Positions 100 through 32,785 of a stretch of DNA of 36,863 nucleotides are shown here, in pieces. This DNA comes from a virus, in the IMG/VR virus record IMGVR_UViG_3300027114_000002, positions 1 to 36,863 of that record, one strand, 5' to 3'. The number at the start of each line of letters is the position of its first letter. Position 1 is the first letter of the stretch. Below the pieces are notes generated by a model. The model did not search any database and had not been told where the DNA came from. It worked only from the letters and a program-made list of their open reading frames with translations. Position numbers and translations under genes: made by a program.

Positions 100-134
100 T
101 TATTATCAAAAACCTGGCGGTTGTCGGTTCATGA
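1..134 (+). CDS. 3' end of the wrap-around annealase-like gene that starts at 36347 (partial in this linearisation)
   Basis: The reading frame from 36347 continues through the 99-bp terminal overlap. It ends at TGA 132..134, which overlaps the ATG at 131 (ATGA). Confidence 0.6.
   Translation, partial: GITEKDAILAAVRGLVNREISSSNELTDDEITLIIKNLAVVGS
113..122 (-). promoter_or_regulatory. Copy F of the exact 10-mer AACCGCCAGG (reverse orientation), 9 nt upstream of the dCMP deaminase ATG
   Basis: The + strand reads CCTGGCGGTT. A second AACCG half-site follows on the minus strand (gAACCGacAACCGCCAGG). Confidence 0.5.
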
Positions 135-556
135 CTCGAATGTCTTGGGACAAATATGGATTGGAGATTGCGAGAGCAGCCTCCTATCGCAGTGAAGATC
201 CATATCTAAAAGTTGGTGCATGTGTTCTACGTGGGGATAGAAGCATAATAAGCATCGGCTACAATGGGGCTGCGCCTGGCGTCGATATTCCTTGGGGAGA
301 TAGAGACGCTAGGCGTGGTTTTGTAATACACGCAGAGGTGAATGCATTGCGGTATTGCACACCAGATCAAACAAAGGGTGGATATTTATATGTGACTCAT
401 CATCCTTGTTCTGAATGCATAAAGGTAATTGCTAGTTACGGAATTGCAAATGTTATGTATTCTGATTTGATAGATGGAGCAGTTTACGATCTATCTTCAA
501 TTGCTGAATTGGCAAAAGCTTTTAATATTTCATTAAAACAGGAGGTAAAACAATGA
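131..556 (+). CDS. Deoxycytidylate (dCMP) deaminase, cytidine/deoxycytidylate deaminase family
   Basis: It has the zinc-binding motifs HAEVNAL and HHPCSECIKVI (HAE...PCxxC). Its 141 aa length fits ComEB/T4 cd-type enzymes. Confidence 0.85.
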   Translation: MTRMSWDKYGLEIARAASYRSEDPYLKVGACVLRGDRSIISIGYNGAAPGVDIPWGDRDARRGFVIHAEVNALRYCTPDQTKGGYLYVTHHPCSECIKVIASYGIANVMYSDLIDGAVYDLSSIAELAKAFNISLKQEVKQ

Positions 557-984
557 GCGCTTTACAAATGATTTTGGATAATCAAAGAAAATTGCAGTTA
601 AAGTCATATGGAGTAGATATTACTACTTTTGATGAAGAACAAAGAGCAGCATATATCCGAGACATGTCTTTGGCATTAACAGATGAGTTGCACGAAGCAT
701 TAAATGAAACCGGTTGGAAACCATGGGCTACAAGTCGGCATATAAACCGATTGGCATTTATTGGTGAAATGATAGATGTACTTCATTTTTGGTGTAATTT
801 AGTTTTAGTTGCAAATGTCAATGAACAAGAGATTTTAGATGTCTATTTTGCTAAAGCCGAAAAGAATGCTAAGCGTCAATTGGTTGGTTACGACGGAGTA
901 GAAGGCAAGTGCAAGACTTGTGGACGAGCATATGATGATGCAGCAGTCCTATGTACTCCAATTGCTTGCGAGCACATAGAATGA
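553..984 (+). CDS. All-alpha NTP pyrophosphohydrolase (dimeric dUTPase/MazG/dCTPase-like) with a C-terminal Cys cluster
   Basis: It has the acidic metal-binding helices DELHEALNE and EMIDVLHF typical of the MazG/dimeric dUTPase superfamily. A GGAGG RBS lies upstream. The C-terminal tail reads CKTCG...C...C. Confidence 0.65.
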   Translation: MSALQMILDNQRKLQLKSYGVDITTFDEEQRAAYIRDMSLALTDELHEALNETGWKPWATSRHINRLAFIGEMIDVLHFWCNLVLVANVNEQEILDVYFAKAEKNAKRQLVGYDGVEGKCKTCGRAYDDAAVLCTPIACEHIE

Positions 985-1979
985 GTTACGTCTTAGATGA
1001 TGTAGTCACCTCGTTTACAGATCGGATTGCAAGTCATAGATCTGCTTGGCCAAGAATGCAGAAATGCATGGTTGATGATGCGCTTAACACTAAATCTGAG
1101 ATTGCTTTTGGCAATGATCAACTTGTTAAAGAAAACACATGGTTAGTATCGACTCCTATGGAATTCAAAGGTGAAGTCTTTAATCTATTTGGTGGTTACA
1201 CAAAAGAGACTAGAGATAGAATTGCTAGAGTTTTAGATATGGATCTTGCCAATATTAAAGCTTTGGACATGCCTATTGGCGATATTGAAAGAATTCTTCG
1301 TCCACGTGCGGCAAAGACTGATTTTGACTTTACAGAATCAGAATGGTCAAAAATTCGTGATCTAATGAAATGCGAAGTTATCAAACACGAAGATCTTGTA
1401 TTAGATATTCAAAGAGTAGTTATCGGTGATTCTCATTCTATTTCAAGGTATAGAGCAAATACTGTTGTCTATCGTCACGATGGTTTAACACTTCACGGTT
1501 TAACGGAAAGAGGAGTCGAACCTTATCTTCCTGATTACTTTGTTCCACATTTAGTTATTTACGCAGGAAATGTAGACATTAGACATCATTTATGTAGACA
1601 GTTGGATCCTGAAGGTTCAGCACGTAGGTTGGTTAGTAATCTTAGAATGCATCTAGAATATATGCAGCAAAAAGGTAAAATAGGAACATTTGAAGTTACT
1701 GCACCCTATCCGATTGAGTTTGAAGAGCGTAAAATTCCAAAAACGGGATTTTACAAAGGTACAGCTTTTTATGGATCTCATCCAGCACGTGACAGAGTTC
1801 GTTCAGTCATGACAAACGAGATGAAATATCAGTTTGACAATGTTCATGAATGGCCAACTAATTGGTACATGATCGATCCAGAAGATTATGCAAAAACATA
1901 CATGGAAAAGCCTGGATCAGTCCATTTATCACCTGAGTTTTATGAATGGGATTTGGTTAACAATGCCGCAAATAACTGA
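981..1979 (+). CDS. Protein with a C-terminal SGNH/GDSL-type hydrolase-like domain
   Basis: The start overlaps the upstream stop (ATGA). Block I is VIGDSHS, block III is AGNVD, and the block V-like segment is VHLSPEFY. The N-terminal ~150 aa have no recognisable motif. Confidence 0.5.
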   Translation: MSYVLDDVVTSFTDRIASHRSAWPRMQKCMVDDALNTKSEIAFGNDQLVKENTWLVSTPMEFKGEVFNLFGGYTKETRDRIARVLDMDLANIKALDMPIGDIERILRPRAAKTDFDFTESEWSKIRDLMKCEVIKHEDLVLDIQRVVIGDSHSISRYRANTVVYRHDGLTLHGLTERGVEPYLPDYFVPHLVIYAGNVDIRHHLCRQLDPEGSARRLVSNLRMHLEYMQQKGKIGTFEVTAPYPIEFEERKIPKTGFYKGTAFYGSHPARDRVRSVMTNEMKYQFDNVHEWPTNWYMIDPEDYAKTYMEKPGSVHLSPEFYEWDLVNNAANN

Positions 1980-3015
1980 AACCATCTACTGGGAAGACTT
2001 TAAGAAGTATTATGACAAAGCTGCCATCTTGCAAACTATAAACATTGCAAGTGACAAAGGCCGTGATACTTCTGAAGATCTACATGTAGATGATCCTTTG
2101 CAACATCACATTACTATTTACGACACAGTAGATCGTGAGTTTGCCGGATTTAGCAATGCTATCCAGCAGATTTGGTATGGATCAAACAATCCAAAAAAAT
2201 GGCAAGTTGATAGTCGTTTTGATGGTTACAACTTGCATGCAATGGATTGGTTTTATCTTTTTATGATTCACAGAGTGACTGGATCAGGTGCTTCGTTTAG
2301 TTATGACCATGGATTTAGAAACAGTATACTTTCAGATATGGCTCTCAAAACTGATAACATGATTCATATGAGAAACTATGTCTTAAGTGAGATGAAAACT
2401 GGTAGACCAATTTTTACAAGTATTGGTAATCAGATTCCACAATTTCCTAAGCCAAATGCAGAGTATCCTCGTGGATCGCAACTTTACATTTCAGAATATA
2501 TGCCTCATTTGGTTAAAGATTTTTATACTCATTTGTCCTATAATCCATTGACGATGTCCATTAGAGATGGGGTTGATTGGATCAATGAATGGCACAAATC
2601 TCAAGGTCTTAAGTGTTTCCATTTTGTAATGACAGCATTTGTAATGGATGTTGCTCAATATTTCCCTACATTGATAGATCCATGGAGTCAAGTAAACTAT
2701 GGAAGCAATGCAATCAAGGCGTTGAATTTATTGTTTAAGAACGAAGGTTACAAGCAAAAAGACTTTTTAGATGCTGCAATGGAGATCATTTGTAATGAGT
2801 TTAGATCTCCTTACGATCCGCGCGACCATGAAAGAAACTTAGGTAAAGGATTAAGTTTAGAAGATGTTGCATGTGATTATGTACGTTACGTTGAATGTTA
2901 CGTACCAAAAGGTTATGAACATTTAGAACCTTGGCAAGTAACAAACAAATCACTGATTCCTCATCATGCAAAGCATTGGACATACCACAAACACTTGGAG
3001 GCTAAAAATGTTTAA
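1963..3015 (+). CDS. Hypothetical ~350 aa protein, a candidate base-modification enzyme by context only
   Basis: It is a long ORF with coding-like composition. The start is uncertain (ATG at 1942 or 1963). I recognise no catalytic motif with certainty, although an HRVTGSGASF segment is notable. Confidence 0.45.
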   Translation: MPQITETIYWEDFKKYYDKAAILQTINIASDKGRDTSEDLHVDDPLQHHITIYDTVDREFAGFSNAIQQIWYGSNNPKKWQVDSRFDGYNLHAMDWFYLFMIHRVTGSGASFSYDHGFRNSILSDMALKTDNMIHMRNYVLSEMKTGRPIFTSIGNQIPQFPKPNAEYPRGSQLYISEYMPHLVKDFYTHLSYNPLTMSIRDGVDWINEWHKSQGLKCFHFVMTAFVMDVAQYFPTLIDPWSQVNYGSNAIKALNLLFKNEGYKQKDFLDAAMEIICNEFRSPYDPRDHERNLGKGLSLEDVACDYVRYVECYVPKGYEHLEPWQVTNKSLIPHHAKHWTYHKHLEAKNV

Positions 3016-3895
3016 GATAACAGAAGACTCTTCGAGTAAGTATTCATACAAGTCACGTGAAGAATGGTTAGATCTTGCAGGCGATTGGGTTGATGAAACT
3101 CAAATGCCAAATATAGGTACATTTCACGGTGCAACAATATGGGACGATTCTGTAACTGGAGTTGGTACAAAAGGTCGTTGGGGAGATCTATTAGTTAAAA
3201 CTATGGAATCAGATCATCTGGTTTATGTACAACCTAGAGTCGGTTGGGCAGGAGTTTCATTAGCTGCTCTTGCAAAGAAATATAACAAAAAGTTAACATT
3301 GTTCATGCCTTCTTCAAAAGTTGTAAGTGACCATCAATTAGTTTGTATTGAAAGAGGGGCAAATCCAATCTTTCGAAGAATTGCAGCAATGCCAGTTCTA
3401 AACAAATATGCAAAAGATTGGGCAGAACAAAATAATGCTCAGTTTGTGCCATTTGGTTTGGATCATCCACTAGTTGTTGCGGCTGGAGTGAAATCAACAA
3501 TTCAACAATGGGGAGCTCGAGATGAACCAAGAGACGTTGTATCAGTTATTAGTACAGGAGTTCTCACGAGAACTCTCCAAATTGCTTGGCCAAATGCAAC
3601 CTTCCACGGAATTGCAGTTGCAAGAAACTTACATGCAGGAGAGATCGGAAGAGCGGACGTTACAACTTACCATAAAGCTTTCAGAGAAAAAGCTGAGTAT
3701 GCAGACAAGATCAATGAAGAGATCAACTCCGCGCCAACCTACGATTGCAAAGGTTTAGAAAGGTTTATGTTGGACAAAACATCTGCTCCTAAAACACCTT
3801 TAACTTTATTGTGGAATGTGGCAGGTGACGTAAAACCAGTTATAATGGACCATTCACAAGTTGATAGTTTCAGAGAATGGGGTGAGTTTAGATGA
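3008..3895 (+). CDS. PLP-dependent enzyme, fold type II (ACC deaminase/D-Cys desulfhydrase/TrpB-like)
   Basis: A GGAGG RBS lies 6 nt before ATG 3008. WDDSVTGVGTKGRWGDLL resembles the K(R/E)DD..GGNKxRK PLP-lysine motif. It is followed by a VYVQPRVGWAGVSLAALAKKYNKKLTLFMP Rossmann-like segment. Confidence 0.55.
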   Translation: MFKITEDSSSKYSYKSREEWLDLAGDWVDETQMPNIGTFHGATIWDDSVTGVGTKGRWGDLLVKTMESDHLVYVQPRVGWAGVSLAALAKKYNKKLTLFMPSSKVVSDHQLVCIERGANPIFRRIAAMPVLNKYAKDWAEQNNAQFVPFGLDHPLVVAAGVKSTIQQWGARDEPRDVVSVISTGVLTRTLQIAWPNATFHGIAVARNLHAGEIGRADVTTYHKAFREKAEYADKINEEINSAPTYDCKGLERFMLDKTSAPKTPLTLLWNVAGDVKPVIMDHSQVDSFREWGEFR

Positions 3896-4335
3896 TTACA
3901 ATCATCGAAGGTTCTGATGGAACAGGCAAAACAACTTATGCTCAAAAATTAACAGAACGATACAATGCACAATATTTGCATGCCGAACAACCAAGATCTA
4001 GATTATGGGTTGATGAATATATTCGACCATTAACTTCTAGTAACATGGTATTAGATCGATGGCATTTAGGTGAATTTGTATGGCCAAAGATTTTTGGAAG
4101 AGTATCATTATTTGATGAAACCACATTTGATTATTGCAATTGGGAACTTGCTAAACTTGGAGCTAGGTTAATCCTTTTAACAAGATCAGAAGATGCAATA
4201 GCTGAAGAATTATTAAGACGTGGCGAAGAAATGCAAATCGATGCAGTATTACATTCAAGATCTTTATTTGTAGAAGCTTTTAGACAAGTGAAATATTTAG
4301 ACAAAACAATAATCCATAGTGAGGTGGTTAGGTAA
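3892..4335 (+). CDS. P-loop nucleotide kinase, thymidylate kinase (Tmk)-like dNMP kinase
   Basis: IIEGSDGTGKTT matches the Tmk P-loop (EGxDGxGKTT). A DRW motif sits at the DRY/DRH position. LILLTRSEDAIAEELLRRGEE aligns with the Tmk lid region. At 147 aa it is short for the family. Confidence 0.7.
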   Translation: MITIIEGSDGTGKTTYAQKLTERYNAQYLHAEQPRSRLWVDEYIRPLTSSNMVLDRWHLGEFVWPKIFGRVSLFDETTFDYCNWELAKLGARLILLTRSEDAIAEELLRRGEEMQIDAVLHSRSLFVEAFRQVKYLDKTIIHSEVVR

Positions 4336-5144
4336 TGCATATAATTACAGAAAATCCAAGCGAAGCTTTAGAGTTAGCAACTCAGTATGTTATTGAACAT
4401 GGTGAAGCCATATCTCCTCGCGGAATGGTTACTAGAGAACTTCTTAATGTAACTTTACAAGTAGAAAAGCCATGGAACATACCTGTATCTATGGAAAACC
4501 GTAAACTAAATCATAATATCGGTATCAAAGAAGCCTTACAACTTGTTGGACAAGTTACGGATCCAGAAGCAATGACAAGTACCAGTCAAGTGTTTGGAAA
4601 GTTTATGGATAATGGAATACTTCATGGTGCTTATGGTCCGCGTATTCACGGTAATCTAAACAAAGTTGTTGAGCAGTTAAAAAAAGATTACTCTACAAGA
4701 CAAGCTGTTTTGACCATCTTTGATTCTAACAAAGATCTAAATGTTGATGTTAAAGATGTTCCTTGTACCTTAAACCTACAGTACTTTATTAGAGACAATA
4801 AGTTAATTGCTCGAACAAATATGAGAAGTAATGACGTATTTCTAGGTCTTCCATATGATTTAACTCAGTTTATTGCTTTACAAGGAGCAATTGCAAAAGC
4901 TTTAGATATTGAAATGGGTCAATACGTTCACGTTGTTGGAAGTATGCACATTTATGATGAACATATACCTCAAGCTCAATGGATTAAAGCATACTTCAAC
5001 GGATCATTCAAAGACTATGAACCAATGTGGACTGGCAATAATATTGGTGAAATCAGTCATACTGCAAGATCTATTCTTAAAGGTAACATTCCTGAACGTT
5101 TAACCCGTTTTGAAAGATTTTTAGCAGGTAAAATCAATGACTGA
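4335..5144 (+). CDS. Thymidylate synthase superfamily enzyme, predicted deoxycytidylate 5-hydroxymethyl- (or methyl-) transferase
   Basis: DVPCTLNLQYF carries the catalytic Cys. MRSNDVFLGLPYD aligns with E. coli ThyA QRSCDVFLGLPFN. GSMHIYDEH aligns with GGDTHLYSNH. Asp replaces the Asn177-equivalent residue. Confidence 0.8.
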   Translation: MHIITENPSEALELATQYVIEHGEAISPRGMVTRELLNVTLQVEKPWNIPVSMENRKLNHNIGIKEALQLVGQVTDPEAMTSTSQVFGKFMDNGILHGAYGPRIHGNLNKVVEQLKKDYSTRQAVLTIFDSNKDLNVDVKDVPCTLNLQYFIRDNKLIARTNMRSNDVFLGLPYDLTQFIALQGAIAKALDIEMGQYVHVVGSMHIYDEHIPQAQWIKAYFNGSFKDYEPMWTGNNIGEISHTARSILKGNIPERLTRFERFLAGKIND

Positions 5145-5271: not shown

Positions 5272-5614
5272 TCAAAGTGAAGTTGTCAAGCGCCTGAGCG
5301 AATTATCGCGTATGCTCGATGCTGCAACTGAAGAAATAGCAGCATTAGATGACCAATCTGTTCGTGCAAAAGGATCTTATGAAGTAGCATATGCAAAATC
5401 CTTTTTAGAATCCAATGGATCAATGGATGTCAGGCGCCAAGAAGCAATTCTTGCTTGCGCTGATCTGCGTCTTGCAATGGAAATTGCAGAAGCTCAAGTC
5501 AGAGCAATAAAAGAAAGAATTAACACATTGAGGTCACAAATATCCATTGGTCAATCATTATCAGCTGCAATTAGACAACAATTTAGTGCTGAAGGCGTAG
5601 GTCAATATACATGA
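5261..5614 (+). CDS. Hypothetical coiled-coil protein
   Basis: The ORF is tightly packed between its neighbours and has a helical, heptad-like composition. Confidence 0.5.
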   Translation: MLPNQSEVVKRLSELSRMLDAATEEIAALDDQSVRAKGSYEVAYAKSFLESNGSMDVRRQEAILACADLRLAMEIAEAQVRAIKERINTLRSQISIGQSLSAAIRQQFSAEGVGQYT

Positions 5615-5877
5615 GATTTAGAAGCAAGAAAATGGCTAAGAAATATGTTGAAAGGCGCAAACTAGTTGCACAAATGCTAGAAACTTATCCCATATGCCAA
5701 AGATGCAATGCAAAGGCGTCCGAAGAAATTCATGAGGTTCTCAGTAGAGCTCGTGGTGGAGATATTTTAGACATTGAGAACTGCAGAGCTTTATGTCATA
5801 TGTGTCACTTCTGGATTACAACAAATCCAGCAGAAGCGCTAAAAACAGGCTGGTTAAAGAATTCCTGGGATAAATGA
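5611..5877 (+). CDS. HNH endonuclease (small)
   Basis: CQRCNA...EEIHEVLSRARGG...NCRALCHMCHFWI shows a CxxC...H...N...CxxCH HNH/zinc pattern. Confidence 0.65.
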   Translation: MRFRSKKMAKKYVERRKLVAQMLETYPICQRCNAKASEEIHEVLSRARGGDILDIENCRALCHMCHFWITTNPAEALKTGWLKNSWDK

Positions 5878-6041: not shown

Positions 6042-6376
6042 CCAACTTATCTAGAAAAAGACGAGGTAGAGAAACAGAATTGATTTTTGCTGAGTATTTG
6101 AAGACACAAGGTTGGACTTATGCTGAAGCGACAAGTTCATCAGCTGCAGGAACCGACATTAAAGGAGTTATCGGAGTTGATTGGGAACTTAAAGCCAGAG
6201 CGGACTTTGATCCTAGATCAGCAATGAAACAACAACAAAAACGCATCAAAGAAGGCGTAATCCCCATCGCTGTTTTAAGGCAGAATGGACAAGGTGAAGC
6301 CGATATTGAGAATTGGCCAGCATGTGTTCCAGTAAGCATTATGATCCAATTACTTAAAGAGGCGGGTTATTTGTGA
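6038..6376 (+). CDS. PD-(D/E)XK nuclease, Holliday-junction-resolvase-like
   Basis: A GGGGAGG RBS lies 7 nt before ATG 6038. GTDIKGVIGVDWELKAR gives a D...ExK motif, preceded by an E in RETELIF. Confidence 0.5.
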   Translation: MTNLSRKRRGRETELIFAEYLKTQGWTYAEATSSSAAGTDIKGVIGVDWELKARADFDPRSAMKQQQKRIKEGVIPIAVLRQNGQGEADIENWPACVPVSIMIQLLKEAGYL

Positions 6377-6651
6377 CAATTAGAGATTTATCATTTGATC
6401 GAGAAGTTGTTCCTTGGATGAAAGAAGGCAATTGTACTGATCCATCAATTGATCCAGATTGGTTTTTCCCAGATAGTGAACACGAAAACAACATAGAACA
6501 AAGAATGGCTTTGGATATGTGCAAAACATGTCCAGTAAAAATGAATTGCTTAGGTTATGCACTCAACAATTGGCCAGTATATGGCATTTGGGGTGGAATG
6601 CGAAATAAACAACTAAAAGATCTAGCGAGACAAATAAAGGAGCAAAAATGA
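6373..6651 (+). CDS. whiB: WhiB-family transcriptional regulator
   Basis: It has the four-Cys pattern NCTD...CKTCPVKMNC (C-x(n)-C-x2-C-x5-C). It also has DPDWFFP and a C-terminal GIWGG turn followed by a basic tail. Confidence 0.9.
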   Translation: MTIRDLSFDREVVPWMKEGNCTDPSIDPDWFFPDSEHENNIEQRMALDMCKTCPVKMNCLGYALNNWPVYGIWGGMRNKQLKDLARQIKEQK

Positions 6652-7046
6652 GTGCAGCAATAACAATTAAAGGTCGTGTTGGTAAAGACATGGACATAAA
6701 GTTTACACAACAAGGTAAAGCGTATGTTCCATTTAGTGTTGTGTCCAATGTACGTAAAAAAGTTAATGAAGAATGGGTCGATGCTGACACAAGTTGGTGG
6801 GAATGCAAAGCTTTTGGAGGTTATGCCGAGGCTCTTGTAGATAACATCAAACGAGGCGATCTGGTGACTATTACAGGAACAATTAAGCAAACAACATGGA
6901 TTGACAAAGACGGAAATAAGCGCTCGTCATATGAGGTCCTGGTAGATACTATTGCAAAACAGATTGTAGTTCAAAAGTATCACGGAACACCAAGAACAAA
7001 GAATGCAGATCCTGTAACATGGGATCCTACCGAAGGAGTATTTTAA
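6648..7046 (+). CDS. ssb: Single-stranded DNA-binding protein (OB fold)
   Basis: ITIKGRVGKDMDIKFTQQGKAYVPFSV...WWECKAFGGYAE...KRGDLVTITGTIKQTTW is the typical SSB OB-fold pattern. Confidence 0.8.
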   Translation: MSAAITIKGRVGKDMDIKFTQQGKAYVPFSVVSNVRKKVNEEWVDADTSWWECKAFGGYAEALVDNIKRGDLVTITGTIKQTTWIDKDGNKRSSYEVLVDTIAKQIVVQKYHGTPRTKNADPVTWDPTEGVF

Positions 7047-7507
7047 TGTCAGTTAAAGCTATGACCTATGTATGGGAAAACTCTCCCTACAATGGCAATG
7101 CTTTAATTGTCCATTTAGCATTGGCAGATCATTGTGACGATCAAGGCATTTGTTGGCCAAGTCAGCAATATTTGGCAGATAAGTGCAAGATAAGTGTCAG
7201 ACAAATTCGCAGAATCATTCACCAAATGATTGCTGATAACTATTTGTTTATAGAACAGCATTCGAGAGCTGGTATTTCTAATAATCGTTACAGATTGTTA
7301 TTTAGAAAGCCGCAGGTCACTGATGTCCTGTCCACAGAATATGACGACTCTAAACGTCCTGCGGCTGAGGTCACAGCTGTGGCCAGCGGTAGAGGTCAAG
7401 CTGATGGCCACCCTAATCATCATATAACCATCAATAATCACCAGAGAAAAGGTCCACCAGAAGAAGTTAAATTGATGATAGAAAGGCTAAGAAAGAAAAA
7501 TGGATAA
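7046..7507 (+). CDS. Winged-helix/HTH DNA-binding protein (replication-initiator or regulator-like)
   Basis: A GAAGGAG RBS precedes ATG 7046. The segment ALIVHLALADHCDDQGICWPSQQYLADKCKISVRQIRRIIHQM is characteristic of HTH_36-type phage proteins. Confidence 0.55.
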   Translation: MSVKAMTYVWENSPYNGNALIVHLALADHCDDQGICWPSQQYLADKCKISVRQIRRIIHQMIADNYLFIEQHSRAGISNNRYRLLFRKPQVTDVLSTEYDDSKRPAAEVTAVASGRGQADGHPNHHITINNHQRKGPPEEVKLMIERLRKKNG

Positions 7508-8111
7508 ATGCCTTAGTTGTCGTGGGGTAAGCGAGAAAGGTGCTTGTCCACATTGCAGAAGAAGATTAAAAAAAATGCTTAATGAGTTAATTGCATTCAT
7601 TGATCTTCTCATTGCTAGTCCTTCCCTAAGACAACAGGTATCTTCCAAACAAGAAGGTAGAGGTTCATTATCTGATAGATCAGTAATCAATGTCCAAATT
7701 GTTGATCTTATTTCTAAAACAGGTGTTCAAAGTGTTCTACAATCATGGTGTGAGTATGTTGTAGAAACAAGAAGTCTTAACACTGATTGTCTTAAGTCTA
7801 CTAAACAAACAAACAAACTTCACATATTGCATAACGTATTGGACACTCACACCGATTGGTTAGCTGATGGTGAATTATGGACTGATTACTACAATGAGAT
7901 CAAAGAACCATGGACAACATTAAGACGCATTATCTATGGTGAGAGAAAACCACCTGAAGCAGTTAAATGTCCTGTACAAGATTGCATTGGTAGTTTAAGA
8001 TTAGAACCTAATGGTGATGTCCATTGTATACACGATAAGACACATCAATGGGCATATGAGCAATGGTCAAGATTAGCCAAACTTATGGTAGAAACCTCTG
8101 TACAAACATGA
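7500..8111 (+). CDS. Hypothetical protein with N-terminal and C-terminal zinc-finger-like Cys/His clusters
   Basis: The clusters are CLSCRG...CPHCRRRL and CPVQDC...HCIHDKTH. Confidence 0.5.
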   Translation: MDKCLSCRGVSEKGACPHCRRRLKKMLNELIAFIDLLIASPSLRQQVSSKQEGRGSLSDRSVINVQIVDLISKTGVQSVLQSWCEYVVETRSLNTDCLKSTKQTNKLHILHNVLDTHTDWLADGELWTDYYNEIKEPWTTLRRIIYGERKPPEAVKCPVQDCIGSLRLEPNGDVHCIHDKTHQWAYEQWSRLAKLMVETSVQT

Positions 8112-8162
8112 TGTTGTGTCATACAATAGGAACTACCGAGCTACAGCTATCTAACAAATCGG

Positions 8163-8477
8163 ATGCTAATGAATAAACCATGTTTAGATTGTGGTGTGTT
8201 AGCAAACAAACCTAGATGTCCTATGTGCAATAAGAAGTATCAGAAGTTTAAAGCAACCTCTCGTCCTTCACGTGCAGATAGGGGTTACGATGCAAATTGG
8301 AAAAGGTTATCAAAACAACTAAGACTATTGCAACCTTATTGTTCTATTTGTAAAGCAACCAACGATTTGACTGTGGATCACATAACACCGTTATCGAGTG
8401 GTGGTCTCACAGTTGAATCGAACTTGCAAGTTCTATGTAGACGATGCAACAGCAGCAAAGGTACTTCCTCTTCCTGA
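8163..8477 (+). CDS. HNH endonuclease (packaging-associated type, adjacent to terminase)
   Basis: Motifs are CLDCG...CPMC, then YCSICKATNDLTVDHITPLSSGG...NLQVLCRRCNSSKG. Confidence 0.85.
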   Translation: MLMNKPCLDCGVLANKPRCPMCNKKYQKFKATSRPSRADRGYDANWKRLSKQLRLLQPYCSICKATNDLTVDHITPLSSGGLTVESNLQVLCRRCNSSKGTSSS

Positions 8478-8627
8478 ATAACATAATGTTATATTAAATC
8501 CCATAGAGGGCCAACGGGTGGTATGGTATGGCCTAAAAGTACATGCATAAACCGCGCTGGATACCCCGCATCCATGGGAGCGTGCAAAGTATCAAAATTA
8601 TTGATTTGACCAAACTGGAGGAATTTG

Positions 8628-9089
8628 ATGACCGCGGGTCGTCCACGCAAACCTATCGAACAGAAGCGCAAAACAGGCCGAACTCCTACAACGGATTCAG
8701 GCGGTCGCAAACTTCCTGATGTTCAGAAGGTCACTGTCTTGCCGATGGCCGATGGTATTCCGACTCCTCCTATGGATCTAGGTCTAGAAGGCCGAGAGCT
8801 TTGGGGAAAAGCTTGGGATCGTGCAATCACTTGGCTTTCTCCTGTAAGTGATTTGACACAAGTTCATCATGCTTGTCGAGTGGCAGATGATCTTAATTTG
8901 GCAAGAACAGTTTACAATACGACACGTGACTCACAAGACGGGCGGCTTGTGGTTGCACTAAGTAAATCTTTCCATGAGGCTTTGGCCTCGTTAGGATTTA
9001 CACCAACATCTCGCTCGCAATTAGGCGTAGCGGAGGTTAAGCGTGTCACAGCTCTCGAACAACTTATTGCTACCAAACGAGCCAAGTAA
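8628..9089 (+). CDS. terS: Terminase small subunit (P27-like)
   Basis: The N-terminus TAGRPRKPIEQKRKTGRTP is typical of the P27 family. A GGAGGA RBS lies upstream, and the gene sits directly before terL. Confidence 0.75.
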   Translation: MTAGRPRKPIEQKRKTGRTPTTDSGGRKLPDVQKVTVLPMADGIPTPPMDLGLEGRELWGKAWDRAITWLSPVSDLTQVHHACRVADDLNLARTVYNTTRDSQDGRLVVALSKSFHEALASLGFTPTSRSQLGVAEVKRVTALEQLIATKRAK

Positions 9090-10754: not shown

Positions 10755-11104
10755 TGACAGCTGGAATTTATAACGCAACCATAGATCAAGGCGCAACATG
10801 GAGCGTTACAGTCACATATACAGATTCAACTGGCGCACCAATCAACTTGACTGGTTATACAGCAGCAATGCAGGTTCGCCAACAGTATAATTCTACAGAT
10901 GCAGATCTAACATTAACCAGTCCTAATGGTGGAATTGTTATCACACCTTTGACTGGAGTTATTGTTATTACAATGACAGCTACACAAACAGCTTCTCTTG
11001 AAGAAGGTTTCTATGTGTATGATGTCGAACTTACATCAGGAACTTTTAAAGATCGTATGATGCAAGGGCAATTGACTGTTGCTCCAGAGGTGACGCGTGT
11101 CTGA
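10754..11104 (+). CDS. Small beta-rich (Ig-like) structural protein
   Basis: The composition is Thr/Val-rich with alternating beta-strand patterns. The gene is translationally coupled to its neighbours. Confidence 0.4.
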
Positions 11105-13112
11105 TAATCAAATCACCGTTGTCAAAGATGTCAATACAGTAACTATTGCTGATGCTGGTACTCAAGGTCCTATCGGTCCTACCGGTCCTACCGGTGCAAC
11201 CGGTATTCAAGGACCAACTGGCGCAACAGGTCCTACAGGTTCTCAAGGAATTCAAGGCGTAACAGGTCCTACTGGAGCACAAGGAATCCAAGGACCTACT
11301 GGTCCTACCGGTTCTCAAGGAGTTACAGGTCCAACAGGAGCGCAAGGACCAACCGGTCCTACTGGTCCTCAAGGAATTCAAGGCGTTACCGGACCGACAG
11401 GTCCGCAAGGCATTCAAGGAATTCAAGGACCAACCGGACCAACCGGCGCACAGGGAATTCAGGGTCAAACAGGACCGACCGGACCACAAGGAATTCAGGG
11501 TCCGACAGGACCGACTGGAGCACAAGGAATCCAAGGAGAAACCGGACCTACAGGACCAACAGGTTCTCAGGGAATCCAGGGACCGACTGGTCCAACTGGA
11601 CCGCAGGGAATTCAAGGACCGACTGGACCGACTGGACCGACTGGAGCAGATTCATTTGTAACAGGACCAACGGGATCAACAGGTCCACAAGGAATCCAAG
11701 GTGTTCAAGGTATACAAGGAATTGAAGGACCAACTGGTCCAATAGGACCAACAGGATCTACTGGACCAACAGGAGCAGCTTCAACTGTTACTGGTCCGAC
11801 TGGCGCGACAGGACCAACCGGTCCGCAAGGTGTTTCAGGACCTACAGGACCTACAGGATCTGCTGGCGCAGATGGAGATAGATACAAAACTACATCCACT
11901 ACGTCACTATTAGTTGGCAATGGCACAAAAACTTTAACTACTGTTGATCTTAATTTAGATTATTCAACAGCTCAGAACGTTGTAATTTCATACGACATAA
12001 ATAATGTTATGCGCGGTGGAGTTGTAAGTTATAACGGAACAACTGGAGTTTTAGTTGTAGATGTAATTAAACATGATGGTGCCGGAACATATACATCTTG
12101 GGAAATTAACTTAGATGGATCAGTTGGAATCCAAGGTGCAACAGGTCCGACAGGACCGACAGGTGCAACTGGAACTATTGGTGCAACTGGAGCAACTGGA
12201 GCAACTGGAGCCACAGGTCCTACCGGTTCAACAGGTTTAACAGGTGATACCGGACCTACTGGTCCGACCGGTGCGCAAGGAATTCAAGGTGTCCAAGGAA
12301 TCCAGGGAGTTACAGGACCGACCGGTCCGCAAGGACCAACCGGTCCGACCGGAGCGCAAGGTATTCAAGGAGAAATTGGCGCGACAGGACCGACCGGTCC
12401 GCAAGGAATTGAAGGACCAACTGGTCCAACAGGTCCTCAAGGAGATCAGGGAATTCAAGGTGTTACCGGTCCGACTGGTCCTCAGGGAATTCAGGGTCAA
12501 ACCGGACCTACAGGTCCTCAGGGAGATCAGGGAATCCAGGGACCGACAGGTCCGACAGGTCCGCAAGGCATTCAAGGAGTTACAGGTCCAACAGGTGCCC
12601 AGGGCATTCAAGGCGATATCGGCCCAACAGGTCCAACAGGTGCCCAGGGAATTCAAGGTGTAACTGGTCCAACTGGCCCAACAGGCGCAGTCGGTGCGAC
12701 AGGCCCCGCTGGAACCAACGGCGCCACAGGTCCAACAGGTCCTGCGGGTACAAACGGCGCGACAGGTCCTACAGGTGCGACAGGTGCGGCAGGTGCCGCG
12801 GCTGCTACCACATACTCTTACACAGCCACAGCTGGACAAACGACATTCAGTGGCGCAGATTTGAACACACTCACTCTTGCCTACACTGTTGGTGCTGAGC
12901 AAGTCTACCTCAATGGCGTGCTCCTTGTACGAGGCAGCGATTATACAGCAAGCAACGGCACCAGCGTTGTGCTTGCAAGTGGCGCCGTTGTTAGCGATTC
13001 GCTTTTGGTTGTAGCGTACGGCGCATTTAACGTCGCCAACACCTACACACAAGTACAAGTTGACGCATTACTTCAAAGTTCAGTCGCAGCTGACGTTATG
13101 GACATCTACTAG
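11097..13112 (+). CDS. Collagen-like (Gly-X-Y) repeat fibre protein
   Basis: There are two long uninterrupted G-X-Y tracts (GPTGPQGIQ-type, about aa 22-260 and 345-560). They are separated by a globular insert and followed by a ~110 aa globular C-terminal domain. Confidence 0.85.
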
Positions 13113-31782: not shown

Positions 31783-31820
31783 GCCCCTGCCTTTCGGCAG
31801 GGGCCTTTTTCTTTTTGTTT
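31783..31820. terminator. Bidirectional rho-independent terminator between convergent genes
   Basis: The hairpin GCCCCTGCC-tttc-GGCAGGGGC is followed by CTTTTTCTTTTTGTTTT and preceded by an A-rich tract (aaagaacaaaaaagaa). Confidence 0.85.
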
Positions 31821-32785
31821 TAGCGAACCATCTCCAAAACTCGATCTGAGAGAGATGTTCCTTGATTCATCATGAATCGCTCGCCTGCAGCAAAATCATC
31901 TGCTGAACGAGTTGTCCGGGTCCATTGTTCGAACTCTGTGAAAGCATTAACAATTCCCCATGCTGTTCCCTTGATATTTTCTTGTGTAGATCCATTCCAG
32001 ATTCCTAGAAGTGTTCCACGGCGTTCTTCAACATTCTTAACTTGACGATCTGTCATGTTTTCTTCGATTGGCATTACATCTTTGACGATTGTCCAGAAGT
32101 CAGAGTTAGCAACTTTCTTATCAAATAGAGAAGATGAAAGAAGGTTGAATTCTTCATTTGACTTAAGAACCACACCTAGAGTTTGACGAACATCTTCGAT
32201 CTTGACATTCATACGAGCTGAATGACGGAAAGAGATAGAAGAAGCATTAGTCCAACGTGTCATTCCGTTTGTGCAGATCAGACGAAGATACTTGATTTCA
32301 AAGCGAAGTGAATCTGTTCCATCGTGAGTATTTGATGCAACTAAAAATGCTTCTACTGGATCAACATTCTTAAGAGTAAGATCAAGAGTGTTTGGAAGCT
32401 TTGCAGCCATAAAGATCTTCTTGCCACCGCGTAATTCACCAGCTGACTGGTAAATCGCACCGGCTTCGTACATAACAGAGTCCACAATATTGACGATGTC
32501 GTTGTTCTGGACAATTGTGTATGTAGGTGAAGTGATTCCAAGAACAGAAGCTGATCCGTCCTTATTGACACGAGTTGTAGCAACTTTGTCTTCAAGCTGA
32601 ACGACTGTCACGCCGCCATTGTTAATTGCTGTAGTTGAAAGTGGAGTGTGCTGAACTTCCCAATCAAGATTTGCATTCTCAAGAACTTGAACTGCAGAGA
32701 TTTGCTCGTCACTTGAATTTACCCATGTTGCTGTGCTGATCCATGGAGCCTTGCGACGTGCTGCGTTCTGGATTTGTACTGACAT
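31820..32785 (-). CDS. DUF932-like phage/plasmid protein (TIGR03299-like), function unknown
   Basis: APWISTATWV...LENANLDWEV...TTRVNKDGSASVLGITSPTYTIVQNND...LRGGKKIFMAAKL...NTHDGTDSLRFEIKYLRLICTNGM matches the pattern I recall for this family. Confidence 0.7.
   Translation of the reverse strand: MSVQIQNAARRKAPWISTATWVNSSDEQISAVQVLENANLDWEVQHTPLSTTAINNGGVTVVQLEDKVATTRVNKDGSASVLGITSPTYTIVQNNDIVNIVDSVMYEAGAIYQSAGELRGGKKIFMAAKLPNTLDLTLKNVDPVEAFLVASNTHDGTDSLRFEIKYLRLICTNGMTRWTNASSISFRHSARMNVKIEDVRQTLGVVLKSNEEFNLLSSSLFDKKVANSDFWTIVKDVMPIEENMTDRQVKNVEERRGTLLGIWNGSTQENIKGTAWGIVNAFTEFEQWTRTTRSADDFAAGERFMMNQGTSLSDRVLEMVR

Follow-up and report, generated by a model that had tools for sequence, protein, structure and literature searches.

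Which base does the operon at the beginning of this viral sequence modify, and what do the three uncharacterised genes at its core contribute? The window, i.e., the whole stretch of 36,863 nucleotides analysed (IMG/VR record IMGVR_UViG_3300027114_000002), carries these genes, termed here A, B and C, between genes of nucleotide metabolism (Table 1). An initial annotation, made from the sequence, had proposed that they belong to a base-modification operon and install an amino-acid- or ester-derived side chain on a 5-hydroxymethyl pyrimidine. Its observations on genes, start sites and motifs are confirmed, while its interpretation as a whole is partly supported. A, B and C are real open reading frames on the + strand, placed as first described. 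The ATG of gene A shares an ATGA with the upstream stop, and the same Met opens its homologs. Gene B homologs are mostly 350 amino acids long and share its start Met; with the start at 1942 of the original gene call, the protein has 357 residues. Gene C homologs are 295 amino acids long. The motifs GDSHS (149-153), GNVD (196-199) and VHLSPEFY (314-321) of gene A and GVGTKGRWG (50-58) of gene C were verified codon by codon.

Table 1. Genes of the putative modification operon and the evidence for their assignment
Feature	Position	Strand	Evidence
dCMP deaminase, T4 cd-like	131..556	+	Pfam PF00383, E 1.5e-19; phrog_174 "dCMP deaminase", E 1.7e-37
gp56-like all-alpha NTP pyrophosphatase	553..984	+	Pfam dUTPase_2, E 3.2e-12; T4 gp56 pairwise BLASTP, E 1e-11
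Gene A, 332 aa, N-terminal α/β and SGNH-fold domain	981..1979	+	AlphaFold2, Foldseek, invariant columns
Gene B, 350 aa, all-helical, divergent aGPT-Pplase/ADDT superfamily	1963..3015	+	AlphaFold2, BFVD Foldseek, motif comparison
Gene C, 295 aa, fold-type II PLP enzyme, M6 gp52/ViI gp226 family	3008..3895	+	phrog_7093, hhalign, motif alignment
Small P-loop kinase, 147 aa, TMPK-like	3892..4335	+	Pfam Thymidylate_kin, E 4.9e-5 (weak); TIGR00041, E 7e-5
Thymidylate-synthase (TS) homolog, dCMP hydroxymethylase signature	4335..5144	+	Best PDB match MilA; diagnostic residues

The target base and its supply

Sequence signatures strongly support cytosine, in its hydroxymethyl form, as the modified base, because the TS homolog bears a dCMP-hydroxymethylase signature and the product of 553..984, labelled a dUTPase, is by BLASTP homology a T4 gp56-like dCTPase. 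The best PDB match of the TS homolog is the CMP 5-hydroxymethylase MilA (E 3.8e-21), ranking above all thymidylate synthases. Its residues D141, C144, D167 and D175 correspond to E. coli L143, C146, D169 (retained) and N177. Asp at the L143, D169 and N177 equivalents denotes a dCMP substrate and a hydroxymethyl, not a 5-hydroxy, product (PMC13326640). T4 gp42 and MilA share this active-site signature, which is found in 28 of the 28 type-1 TS homologs that could be read beside A-B-C modules. The L143D and N177D replacements, the kept D169 and the gp56-like dCTPase speak against thymine as the target base.

The gp56-like pyrophosphatase would thus remove dCTP and supply dCMP. The small kinase exhibits thymidylate-kinase-like motifs (IEGSDGTGKTT and DRW), does not match the 5-hmdU DNA kinase family PF18748, and has only the P-loop in common with PaMx11 gp49. 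Where the TS gene stands apart from A-B-C (loci L013 and L091), the kinase accompanies the TS gene. A T4-type pathway requires a dNMP kinase for 5hm-dCMP, namely T4 gp1, and conversion of 5hm-dCMP to the diphosphate is the most likely role of the small kinase. The deaminase gene, the first of the operon and a member of its nucleotide-pool part, is a neighbour of the module in 22 of the 30 related loci. The operon therewith contains a homolog or analog for each of the four T4 functions of hmC synthesis (gp56 dCTPase, gp42 dCMP hydroxymethylase, gp1 dNMP kinase and cd). Whereas T4 acts on hmC with α- and β-glucosyltransferases, the operon lacks a glycosyltransferase and carries A, B and C instead.

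Folds and motifs of the three proteins

The SGNH assignment of gene A is borne out by its AlphaFold2 model (pLDDT 91.3). Residues ~145-332 match the solved SGNH hydrolases 2hsj, 4s1p and 3mil (Foldseek probability 1.00; TM normalised to target 0.52-0.60) and thus share the fold of the SGNH/GDSL superfamily, which includes PAF acetylhydrolase and sialate O-acetylesterases; no Pfam SGNH model matches this part. Block I is a GDS with Ser151 (nt 1431-1433), and blocks II, III and V provide Gly168, Asn197 (1569-1571) and His315 (1923-1925), respectively. All 33 gene-A homologs compared, which share 36-89% identity with the window protein, keep G149, D150, S151, H152, G168, N197, D199 and H315 unchanged, a conservation beyond chance. 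Gene A departs from the superfamily in its block V, where P-G-S-V-H replaces D-x-x-H and the canonical Asp is absent, in its block III, which reads G-N-x-D instead of G-x-N-D, and in an additional invariant Arg/His/Glu set (R165, D167, R201, H203, E246, E248, R250). It also possesses an obligatory N-terminal domain and is obligatorily associated with a DNA base-flipping domain. The loop formed by residues 246-260 is disordered yet conserved.

Residues 1-140 form a conserved α/β domain with invariant D6, H19, W23 and E61, and these N-terminal ~140 residues have no sequence match in Pfam, NCBIfam or the PDB. They had been described as an orphan domain, but are not separable: of the 150 best representatives of the family, nearly all combine them with the SGNH part, the few shorter matches being short, apparently truncated sequences. 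Among its 464 representatives the two domains are almost always found together. Fold and motifs suggest the acyl-esterase/transferase chemistry first proposed for gene A. SGNH enzymes are mostly hydrolases, however, and A could therefore remove a group rather than install one. To our knowledge, an SGNH enzyme has not been reported so far in DNA base modification.

Gene B had been left without an assignable motif, which is correct at the sequence level: Pfam, PHROG, NCBIfam and PDB sequences yield no match for it, the comparison with the Pfam models ADDT and HMUDK_hel is negative up to E 1, and neither an HMMER profile nor hhalign connects it to PaMx11 gp46 or gp50. Its AlphaFold2 model is all-helical (pLDDT 94.5) and, in Foldseek searches of BFVD, resembles ADDT-labelled viral models (TM 0.80, E 1e-17), followed more distantly by the SP10 5-hmdU DNA kinase (TM 0.49), Pplase1 (TM 0.43) and the helical domains of PhiW-14 and phiRSL1. 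PaMx11 gp46 (PUGT, PDB 8Z2M/8Z2N) is the only solved amino-acid:DNA transferase; it binds DNA and flips out a base, with Cys247 proposed to attack C6 and E243/T244 placing a metal on O4 (PMC11472151). The two proteins are both all-helical with a C-terminal E-[TD]-x-x-C-x-[WY] motif, the invariant E300-D301-x-x-C304 of gene B (nt 2860-2874) aligning with E243-T244-x-x-C247 of gp46. Gene B differs by its 60 additional residues and by Asp301 in place of Thr244, which may serve to recognise the cytosine 4-amino group. Structure 8Z2M of gp46 is not among the PDB matches listed by Foldseek and a sequence-profile link is lacking; membership of the superfamily therefore rests on predicted-structure matches and a short motif. 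With these, gene B appears to be a very divergent member of the aGPT-Pplase/amino-acid:DNA-transferase superfamily, in agreement with its position, pointed out earlier, where hypermodification clusters usually carry the group-transfer enzyme.

The PLP lysine of gene C, a fold-type II enzyme, lies where the initial annotation had placed it. In alignments this residue, K55 (nt 3170-3172), which is invariant in 31 homologs, coincides with the PLP lysine of CysK and with the Lys of "SK.R" in gp52. The ACC deaminase/D-Cys desulfhydrase label was replaced: gene C belongs to phrog_7093 (E 1.1e-27), as does M6 gp52 (E 2.2e-159), to which hhalign connects it directly (E 8.8e-5), and the closest solved sequences are, weakly, cysteine synthases. 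The M6 gp52/ViI gp226 family fits better; both of these enzymes decarboxylate amino-acid:nucleobase conjugates in DNA (PMC8989533). To note, Erythrobacter phage ZS04 has a fusion that joins a C-type domain to domains of ParB and DNA methyltransferase type.

Partners of gene A and distribution of the triad

Each of the 70 IMG/VR loci that extend far enough around gene A has a helical partner next to it, a count that leaves out 10 contigs ending less than 2.9 kb downstream of gene A; this partner is gene B in 30 loci and a Pfam HMUDK_hel protein in 40. Natural fusions of A with a gene-B-type domain, A being first, were found in seven 50%-identity cluster representatives (profile E 1e-153 to 4e-19). 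In P0382 gene A is fused to a Pfam-significant HMUDK_hel domain, and ORF233c of Aeromonas phage 31 is a second A::HMUDK_hel fusion (transitive homology, E 2.7e-22). The latter phage also exhibits a T4-type gp42 signature, hence an hmC context in a cultured phage; cultured Aeromonas phages make the pathway testable.

That the three genes belong together, as first proposed, is confirmed by their neighbourhoods: 27 of 30 related IMG/VR loci contain A, B and C as well as the TS homolog, the three other contigs ending at or just past gene B (two) or 3.2 kb beyond it. The highly divergent loci L013, L014 and L091 likewise contain all four. The A-B-C triad itself is present in L008, L011-L014, L091 and 28 of the 30 type-1 IMG/VR loci, with A and B down to 27-30% identity, and apparently represents a widespread enzyme set decorating 5hmC in viral DNA. 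The P-loop kinase lies in the same operon in 27 of the 30 type-1 loci, and bears an unexplained C-terminal extension of ~200 residues in L013 and L014. Searches for the kinase gave no homolog in L008, L011, L012 and the 40 type-2 modules, although A and a helical protein are present there. Gene C is replaced in this second type of module by a methyltransferase and an inositol-phosphate-synthase-like gene, and the amino-acid logic proposed below does not extend to such modules. Depending on the module, gene A is accompanied by the PLP enzyme, by inositol-phosphate synthase and methyltransferase, by UDP-galactopyranose mutase or by a solute symporter; a gp56-like pyrophosphatase homolog adjoins gene-A modules of both types.

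A proposed pathway and its alternatives

In phages M6, ViI, PaMx11, SP10 and ΦW-14, a 5-hmdU DNA kinase acts first, then an aGPT-Pplase2/ADDT and thereafter tailoring enzymes, among them a PLP decarboxylase (PMC8989533, PMC5889632). The window resembles these systems in its overall logic: a TS homolog would provide the 5-hydroxymethyl pyrimidine nucleotide for incorporation into DNA, and this DNA would then be the substrate of a helical member of the aGPT-Pplase superfamily and of a PLP enzyme of the gp52/gp226 type. The genes are likewise clustered and sometimes fused, as in SP10 gp186, which combines kinase and helical domain. In contrast, the base is predicted to be cytosine (N177D, L143D) and not uracil/thymine, a 5-hmdU DNA kinase (PF18748) is not recognisable, and gene B is too divergent for the Pfam ADDT or HMUDK_hel models. 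The novelty lies in the partner of the helical enzyme: an obligate, often fused, two-domain SGNH-fold protein stands where the known thymine pathways have a DNA kinase.

We favour, with moderate confidence, a pathway of cytosine hypermodification in which the flanking genes would form the nucleotide-level half and A, B and C the DNA-level half. Its first step is strongly supported by signatures: the gp56-like pyrophosphatase would yield dCMP, the TS homolog would convert it to 5-hydroxymethyl-dCMP, and the TMPK-like kinase would phosphorylate the latter, so that replication would introduce 5hmC into phage DNA, as in T4. A and B would then act on 5hmC in DNA as a single two-part enzyme, an architecture shown by adjacency and fusions, with a chemistry proposed by analogy. 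B would be the helical base-flipping subunit, its Cys304 attacking C6 of the flipped pyrimidine; the leaving group would depart from the 5-methylene and a nucleophile add, as proposed for PaMx11 gp46. A would assume the role of the P-loop 5-hmdU DNA kinase of thymine systems. In the preferred version, its Ser151/His315 site would esterify the 5-CH2OH, for example from an acyl-thioester donor, and B would exchange the esterified hydroxyl, now a leaving group, for an amino acid attached via its side chain. C, as its family membership supports, would engage the free α-amine of the amino acid on the DNA in a Schiff base and remove the carboxyl group, so that cytosine would end up with a positively charged side chain bearing an amine.

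An activating role for A would be unnecessary if the small kinase could act as a DNA kinase. The TMPK-like protein, alone or with B, would then phosphorylate 5hmC in DNA, B would displace the phosphate with an amino acid, C would decarboxylate it, and A would be a late tailoring esterase/acyltransferase trimming or acylating the group. This arrangement reproduces the logic of the proven thymine pathways (kinase, ADDT, PLP decarboxylase), leaves SGNH enzymes to their ordinary job of hydrolysis or acyl transfer on small groups, and could draw on the frequent presence of the kinase in type-1 operons and on the extension in L013 and L014. We nevertheless consider it unlikely. The kinase has thymidylate-kinase motifs rather than a PF18748 match, and its likeness to gp49 is limited to the P-loop; it stays beside the TS gene, not A-B-C, once the groups separate, and is undetected in the modules listed above. 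It is also the sole candidate for the dNMP kinase that a T4-type pathway needs (RB69 and DLP3 being precedents), and a tailoring enzyme is hardly expected to be fused to a base-flipping domain in nine independent lineages.

Somewhat less probable still is that A is itself the group transferase, a Ser151 acyl-enzyme passing an acyl or aminoacyl group to the 5-CH2OH to form an ester, with B only binding DNA and flipping the base, and C acting on the ester-linked amino acid or making the donor. The Ser/Gly/Asn/His blocks are intact and invariant across the family, A's fusion to two helical-domain clades suggests an interchangeable DNA-handling module, and its partners vary between modules. B retains its invariant Cys/Glu catalytic motif, though, which a passive scaffold would be expected to lose; esters of the benzylic type would be labile in DNA, and one formed through the α-carboxyl would deprive a gp52-type decarboxylase of the group that it removes. 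Very unlikely, finally, is an action of A, B and C on free nucleotides or small metabolites (e.g., precursor salvage or synthesis), the genes being merely co-transcribed with the hydroxymethylase. The cysteine synthases, closest solved sequence relatives of C, do act on free amino acids, but its characterised relatives use DNA-bound ones, DNA binding and base flipping characterise both the solved gp46 and the proteins structurally related to B, and the C-type domain of phage ZS04 is joined to domains of DNA-acting proteins.

The operon and its target base

The window is a complete metagenomic phage contig (36,863 bp, ~40% G+C) whose + strand carries seven translationally coupled genes between 131 and 5144, joined by ATGA and TGATG junctions. 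Their coordinates, together with those of a few other genes of the contig, are collected below.

Features of the window discussed in the text
Feature	Coordinates	Strand	Size	Remarks
dCMP deaminase	131-556	+		family matches
Dimeric-dUTPase-family pyrophosphatase	553-984	+		homologous to T4 gp56 dCTPase
Gene A (SGNH-type)	981-1979	+	332 aa	
Gene B (helical)	1963-3015	+	350 aa	
Gene C (PLP)	3008-3895	+	295 aa	
Kinase	3892-4335	+	147 aa	thymidylate-kinase motifs
Thymidylate-synthase (TS) homolog	4335-5144	+		best solved relative MilA
Group of WhiB transcription factor, two HNH endonucleases and DUF932 gene	5611-5877, 6373-6651, 8163-8477, 31820-32785	DUF932 on -		WhiB: PF02467, E 1.7e-15

The target base can be read from the TS homolog. 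Its top solved match is MilA, a CMP 5-hydroxymethylase (E 3.8e-21), which ranks above every true thymidylate synthase. Under the diagnostic residue rules for viral TS homologs published in 2026 (PMC13326640), Asp175, at the position of E. coli ThyA N177, points to dCMP as the substrate; Asp141, at the position of L143, where the rules ask for Asp/Glu, points to a hydroxymethyl and not a methyl product; and Asp167, which keeps D169 of ThyA, argues against a 5-hydroxy-dCMP synthase. The catalytic Cys is present (C144). As a control, the dUMP hydroxymethylase of phage PaMx11 carries Asn at the N177 position, and the dCMP-hydroxymethylase signature was found in 28/28 readable TS homologs near modules containing genes A, B and C. 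With this signature and its flanking genes, the operon appears from its sequence to be a T4-style 5-hydroxymethyl-dCTP factory acting on cytosine, with three extra genes in its middle. The initial annotation had proposed that these genes tailor a side chain on a 5-hydroxymethyl pyrimidine, in thymidine or cytidine hypermodification. The finding stands, and so does its general interpretation once corrected to cytosine, the TS signature deciding for cytidine and against thymine hypermodification. A 5-hydroxycytosine pathway of the RB69 type is likewise rejected, as D169 is retained.

The three central genes and their relatives

The three genes are real and correctly positioned, and their starts agree with the lengths and N-termini of their homologs. 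The motifs first noticed in genes A (GDSHS, GNVD, VHLSPEFY) and C (GVGTKGRWG) lie where they had been placed, with core residues invariant in 31-33 homologs down to 36% identity.

Gene C matches phrog_7093 (E 1.1e-27), of which gp52 of phage M6 is a core member (E 2.2e-159), and alignment of the C-family profile with gp52 by hhalign gives E 8.8e-5 over 185 columns. Both proteins contain the motifs SK.R, S(T/S)G, RN, YD.K, and FWN(V/I). Lys55, invariant in gene C homologs, aligns with the PLP lysine of CysK (cysteine synthase) in a PDB profile search and with the Lys of the gp52 SK.R motif. The Pfam PALP model scores 18.2 bits, below its gathering score of 35. These profiles would assign gene C to the PLP-decarboxylase family of M6 gp52 and ViI gp226, two purified enzymes acting in DNA on Cα-glycinyl-thymine and O-serinyl-thymine, which they decarboxylate, and the only ones for which amino-acid decarboxylation on a DNA base has been shown (PMC8989533). 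The resemblance to ACC deaminase initially suggested finds no support beyond the fold type held in common. To note, gp7 of Erythrobacter phage ZS04 (L005:2326-4764, 812 aa) combines a gp52-type PLP domain with ParB-like, N6/N4 DNA methyltransferase and phrog_12517 domains; L002 and L006:4378-6696 are grouped with it, and Microcystis phage Mae-JY30 encodes these parts as separate neighbouring genes. The fusion of a gene C-type domain to ParB and a DNA methyltransferase again indicates DNA as the substrate, and these proteins may belong to another, unrelated DNA modification system that uses the PLP domain.

Gene B has 367 metagenomic homologs and no match in Pfam, PHROG, NCBIfam or PDB sequences. 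PF18724 (ADDT) and PF18723 (HMUDK_hel) were matched neither by the window protein at E 0.1 nor by 38 family members at E 1, whereas the Pfam controls PaMx11 gp46 and gp50 do match (E 1.6e-27 and 5.6e-41). An AlphaFold2 model built from the 38 homologs is all-helical (pLDDT 94.5, pTM 0.92). Foldseek against the PDB returned no match with TM > 0.22, the solved gp46 (8Z2M) not being among the results. In BFVD, the 5-hmdU DNA kinase of SP10 (E 1.7e-4), Pplase1, a clade-1 Pplase (E 1.7e-3), and the helical domains of phiRSL1 and PhiW-14 (E 0.02-0.05) were retrieved as more distant structural matches. At the level of predicted structures, the all-helical fold is thus common to gene B and members of the aGPT-Pplase/ADDT superfamily. 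Furthermore, the gene B motif E300-D301-V-A-C304-D-Y has the spacing of E243-T244-x-x-C247-x-W in PaMx11 gp46, a short motif aligned by eye, and E300, D301 and C304 are invariant in 38/38 homologs. The pattern E-x-x-x-C-x-aromatic also occurs in PaMx11 gp50, in the HMUDK_hel protein of locus L009 and in the C-terminus of an Aeromonas phage 31 protein. In gp46, E243/T244 keep a metal on O4 of a flipped-out pyrimidine, whose C6 is the proposed target of attack by Cys247 (PMC11472151). Sequence comparisons yielded no link: hhalign failed for gp46 and for the phage 31 C-terminus, as did the gene B HMMER profile for gp46, gp50 and the L009 helical protein, so that the connection to ADDT/HMUDK_hel consists of predicted-structure comparison and catalytic motif. 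Association with a 5-hydroxymethylpyrimidine synthase is also observed, a TS homolog being present in the operon of the window and of 27/30 loci in which gene A adjoins gene B. On the structural matches and the motif, gene B would form a very divergent clade of the aGPT-Pplase/ADDT superfamily, outside both Pfam families.

The gene A model (pLDDT 91.3) is confident save for a conserved loop, 251-260. Its N-terminal 140 residues are modelled as an α/β domain with invariant residues of its own, for which relatives were not detected and no family is assignable. Residues ~145-332 bear out the SGNH type proposed from the sequence: Foldseek of the model recovers the three-layer α/β/α SGNH-hydrolase fold, matching PDB entries 2hsj, 4s1p, 3mil, 4rw0, and 7pzh with probability 1.00 (TM (target) 0.52-0.60, E 2e-4 to 7e-3, ~190 columns). 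SGNH blocks I (Ser151), II (Gly168), and III (Asn197) are all present, and GDSHS 149-153, D167-G168, and G196-N197-x-D199 are invariant in 33/33 homologs. Block III is spaced G-N-x-D instead of the canonical G-x-N-D. In block V (D-x-x-H), His315 is invariant but the catalytic Asp three positions before it is replaced by Gly or Arg (P-[GR]-S-V-H); the invariant Glu309 might serve in its stead. The protein also has unusual additional invariant Arg, His, and Glu residues. Curated SGNH/GDSL models of Pfam (at E 0.1) and NCBIfam did not match gene A, nor did the family profile match PDB sequences. In a full-database profile search, 464 clusters (50% identity) were found; both domains are covered by all but a few of the best 150, the exceptions being short, apparently truncated sequences.

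Fusions and neighbourhoods of gene A

Fusions and neighbourhoods both link gene A to a helical partner. Seven of the cluster representatives (P0361, P0384, P0379, P0391, P0437, P0456, and P0441) are single proteins with an N-terminal A part and a C-terminal gene B-type domain (profile E 1e-153 to 4e-19). P0382 is a triple fusion of an FkbM methyltransferase, a Pfam-significant HMUDK_hel domain, and A. ORF233c of Aeromonas phage 31 (L001:5959-8346, 795 aa) joins A to a C-terminal HMUDK_hel-type domain homologous to a Pfam-significant HMUDK_hel protein (E 2.7e-22). Among 80 IMG/VR loci examined of at least 593, gene B adjoins gene A in 30, HMUDK_hel lies within 4 kb downstream of A in 40, and the remaining 10 contigs end before the expected position of the partner.

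Within the 30 B-type loci, gene C is present in 28; two of the three lacking the TS homolog are contigs ending at or just past gene B. The complete A-B-C set is kept in L008, L011/L012, L013, L014, and L091, where A is 27-34% identical. The initial annotation had made its idea depend on the three genes co-occurring with the TS homolog, and this co-occurrence is upheld, the triad and the TS homolog being kept in most related loci. Two of these loci have additional genes. In the 52-kb contig L013, an RtcB RNA-ligase gene (7835-9004) lies between the A and B homologs, and the TS homolog, kinase and dCMP deaminase are located 7 kb away on the opposite strand. In L011, a 183-kb T4-like marine contig, an unassigned 350-aa gene (6948-8000) between the B and C homologs faintly resembles both the gene B profile and the C-terminal region of the fusion P0437, and may be a second helical-domain paralog.

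The HMUDK_hel-associated loci form a second, very conserved module, found mostly in marine viral contigs of up to 234 kb (L009, L010, L045-L095; e.g. L009:2550-8593). Its order is A, a myo-inositol-1-phosphate-synthase-like gene (Ino1-like, PF01658), a 158-aa gene, an FkbM methyltransferase (PF05050), HMUDK_hel (PF18723), and a gp56-like pyrophosphatase, with no PLP gene. It accounts for 40/80 IMG/VR loci, plus 10 truncated ones carrying the Ino1-like gene, and may make an inositol-derived base modification.

Cultured T4-like Aeromonas phages may hold further variants. Phages 31 and 44RR2.8t encode the 795-aa fusion directly 3' of a phage sodium:solute symporter gene (PF00474; L001:4366-5889). 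Phage 31 gp42 (L096:933-1628) carries a signature of the hydroxymethylcytosine type; the stretches examined showed no glucosyltransferase. In Aeromonas phage 25 (L004:2776-6047), the gene A homolog stands alone, 3' of a UDP-galactopyranose mutase gene (PF03275, E 5e-54), and is also preceded by a 358-aa protein without family match; this locus may reflect a furanose-sugar variant of the system. The Aeromonas T4-like matches and the mutase neighbour prompted consideration of gene A as an arabinosyl- or glycosyltransferase, which was rejected for the window, as the protein has no glycosyltransferase fold or motif; in phage 25 its homolog may still have such a role.

A possible pathway and its alternatives

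The nearest known system is the thymidine hypermodification of phages M6, ViI, PaMx11, SP10, and ΦW-14, with which the window module has its overall logic in common. It differs in that its base is cytosine, it has no recognisable DNA kinase, and it adds an SGNH-fold partner. From the gene set, folds, conserved catalytic-type residues, fusions, and co-occurrence shown by these comparisons, a pathway may be sketched. According to established family knowledge, 5hm-dCTP would be made and then incorporated into DNA, where gene B would flip the base and act by covalent catalysis through attack of its Cys on C6. The hydroxyl would have to be turned into a leaving group ahead of this chemistry. By analogy, gene A may substitute for the 5-hmdU DNA kinase: the helical domain is joined to a P-loop kinase in SP10 and to gene A here, and the Ser/His site of an SGNH enzyme could form an acyl-enzyme and esterify the hydroxyl. 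Gene C would finally perform PLP-dependent decarboxylation of an amino acid with free α-amine and α-carboxylate; since both groups stay free, the linkage would run through the side chain. A bolder reading, given about one chance in three, makes gene A the first member of a new class of DNA-base-modifying enzymes. As an SGNH-fold catalytic subunit docked on, or fused to, an aGPT-Pplase-type base-flipper, it would activate the 5-hydroxymethyl group of cytosine in double-stranded DNA, or acylate it, in place of the ATP-dependent DNA kinase that all known pathways use. Gene A and its helical core would then be a platform for at least two cytosine hypermodifications, one amino-acid-derived and decarboxylated (window), the other inositol-derived and methylated (marine). 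That gene A is a new enzyme activity has a realistic chance, of the order of one third.

Other assignments of the same genes have to be weighed. The small kinase of the operon could be the DNA kinase, leaving gene A as a tailoring esterase. Its sequence does not indicate membership of the 5-hmdU DNA kinases (P-loop 5-HMUDK): PF18748 is not matched at E 0.1, the BLASTP alignment with PaMx11 gp49 is limited to 20 P-loop residues, and the best weak matches are thymidylate kinase models and YorR. Moreover, in L013 and L091, where the TS homolog lies apart from A-B-C, the kinase adjoins the TS gene, and the marine modules containing A yielded no kinase homolog; this favours, though it does not prove, a role at the nucleotide level. 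Alternatively, gene A would itself be the transferase and gene B a scaffold, a reading to be set beside the invariant Glu, Asp, and Cys of the gene B motif; or all three genes would act off DNA, to be set beside the domain composition of ZS04 gp7. As for the kinase itself, its counterparts in two divergent relatives are longer (L013:17655-18638 (-) and L014:11311-12432; 327-373 aa compared to 147 aa), and their extra ~200 C-terminal residues matched no Pfam family.

No paper in the searchable literature reports an SGNH protein combined with an aGPT-Pplase, or an SGNH enzyme in phage DNA hypermodification; this scope excludes Iyer et al. 2013, who reportedly defined the aGPT-Pplase families. 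In that searchable literature, an amino-acid-type hypermodification of 5hmC is likewise not described, and the characterised non-glycosyl hypermodifications proceeding via a 5-hydroxymethyl pyrimidine are all on thymine, with a P-loop DNA kinase first. The module may represent a cytosine counterpart whose first enzyme differs. It is present on at least 593 IMG/VR contigs, and its carriers include freshwater actinophage-like genomes, marine phages of large size and Aeromonas phages in culture. Its confirmation would enlarge the known repertoire of natural DNA bases, give an old fold a new enzyme activity, account for the resistance of these phage DNAs to restriction and sequencing, and provide tools for site-selective derivatisation of 5hmC, useful in epigenomics. 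The proposal can be put to a direct test, since gene A homologs are encoded by three cultured Aeromonas phages, 31, 44RR2.8t, and 25.

The window phage itself seems to have no close relative in culture: megablast of its first 8 kb against 50,697 phage records gave no match, nor did tblastn of gene B and the kinase against phage records. No DNA polymerase was seen among the window ORFs covered by a non-systematic scan, so the modified dNTP may be used by the host polymerase. The WhiB gene suggests that this host is actinobacterial. One of the two HNH endonuclease genes lies just 5' of the terminase region. At 11001-13000, G+C rises up to 0.50-0.55 with an AT skew of about +0.2, compared to a G+C of 0.34-0.44 in most of the contig; this rise coincides with a 671-aa ORF (11097-13112).
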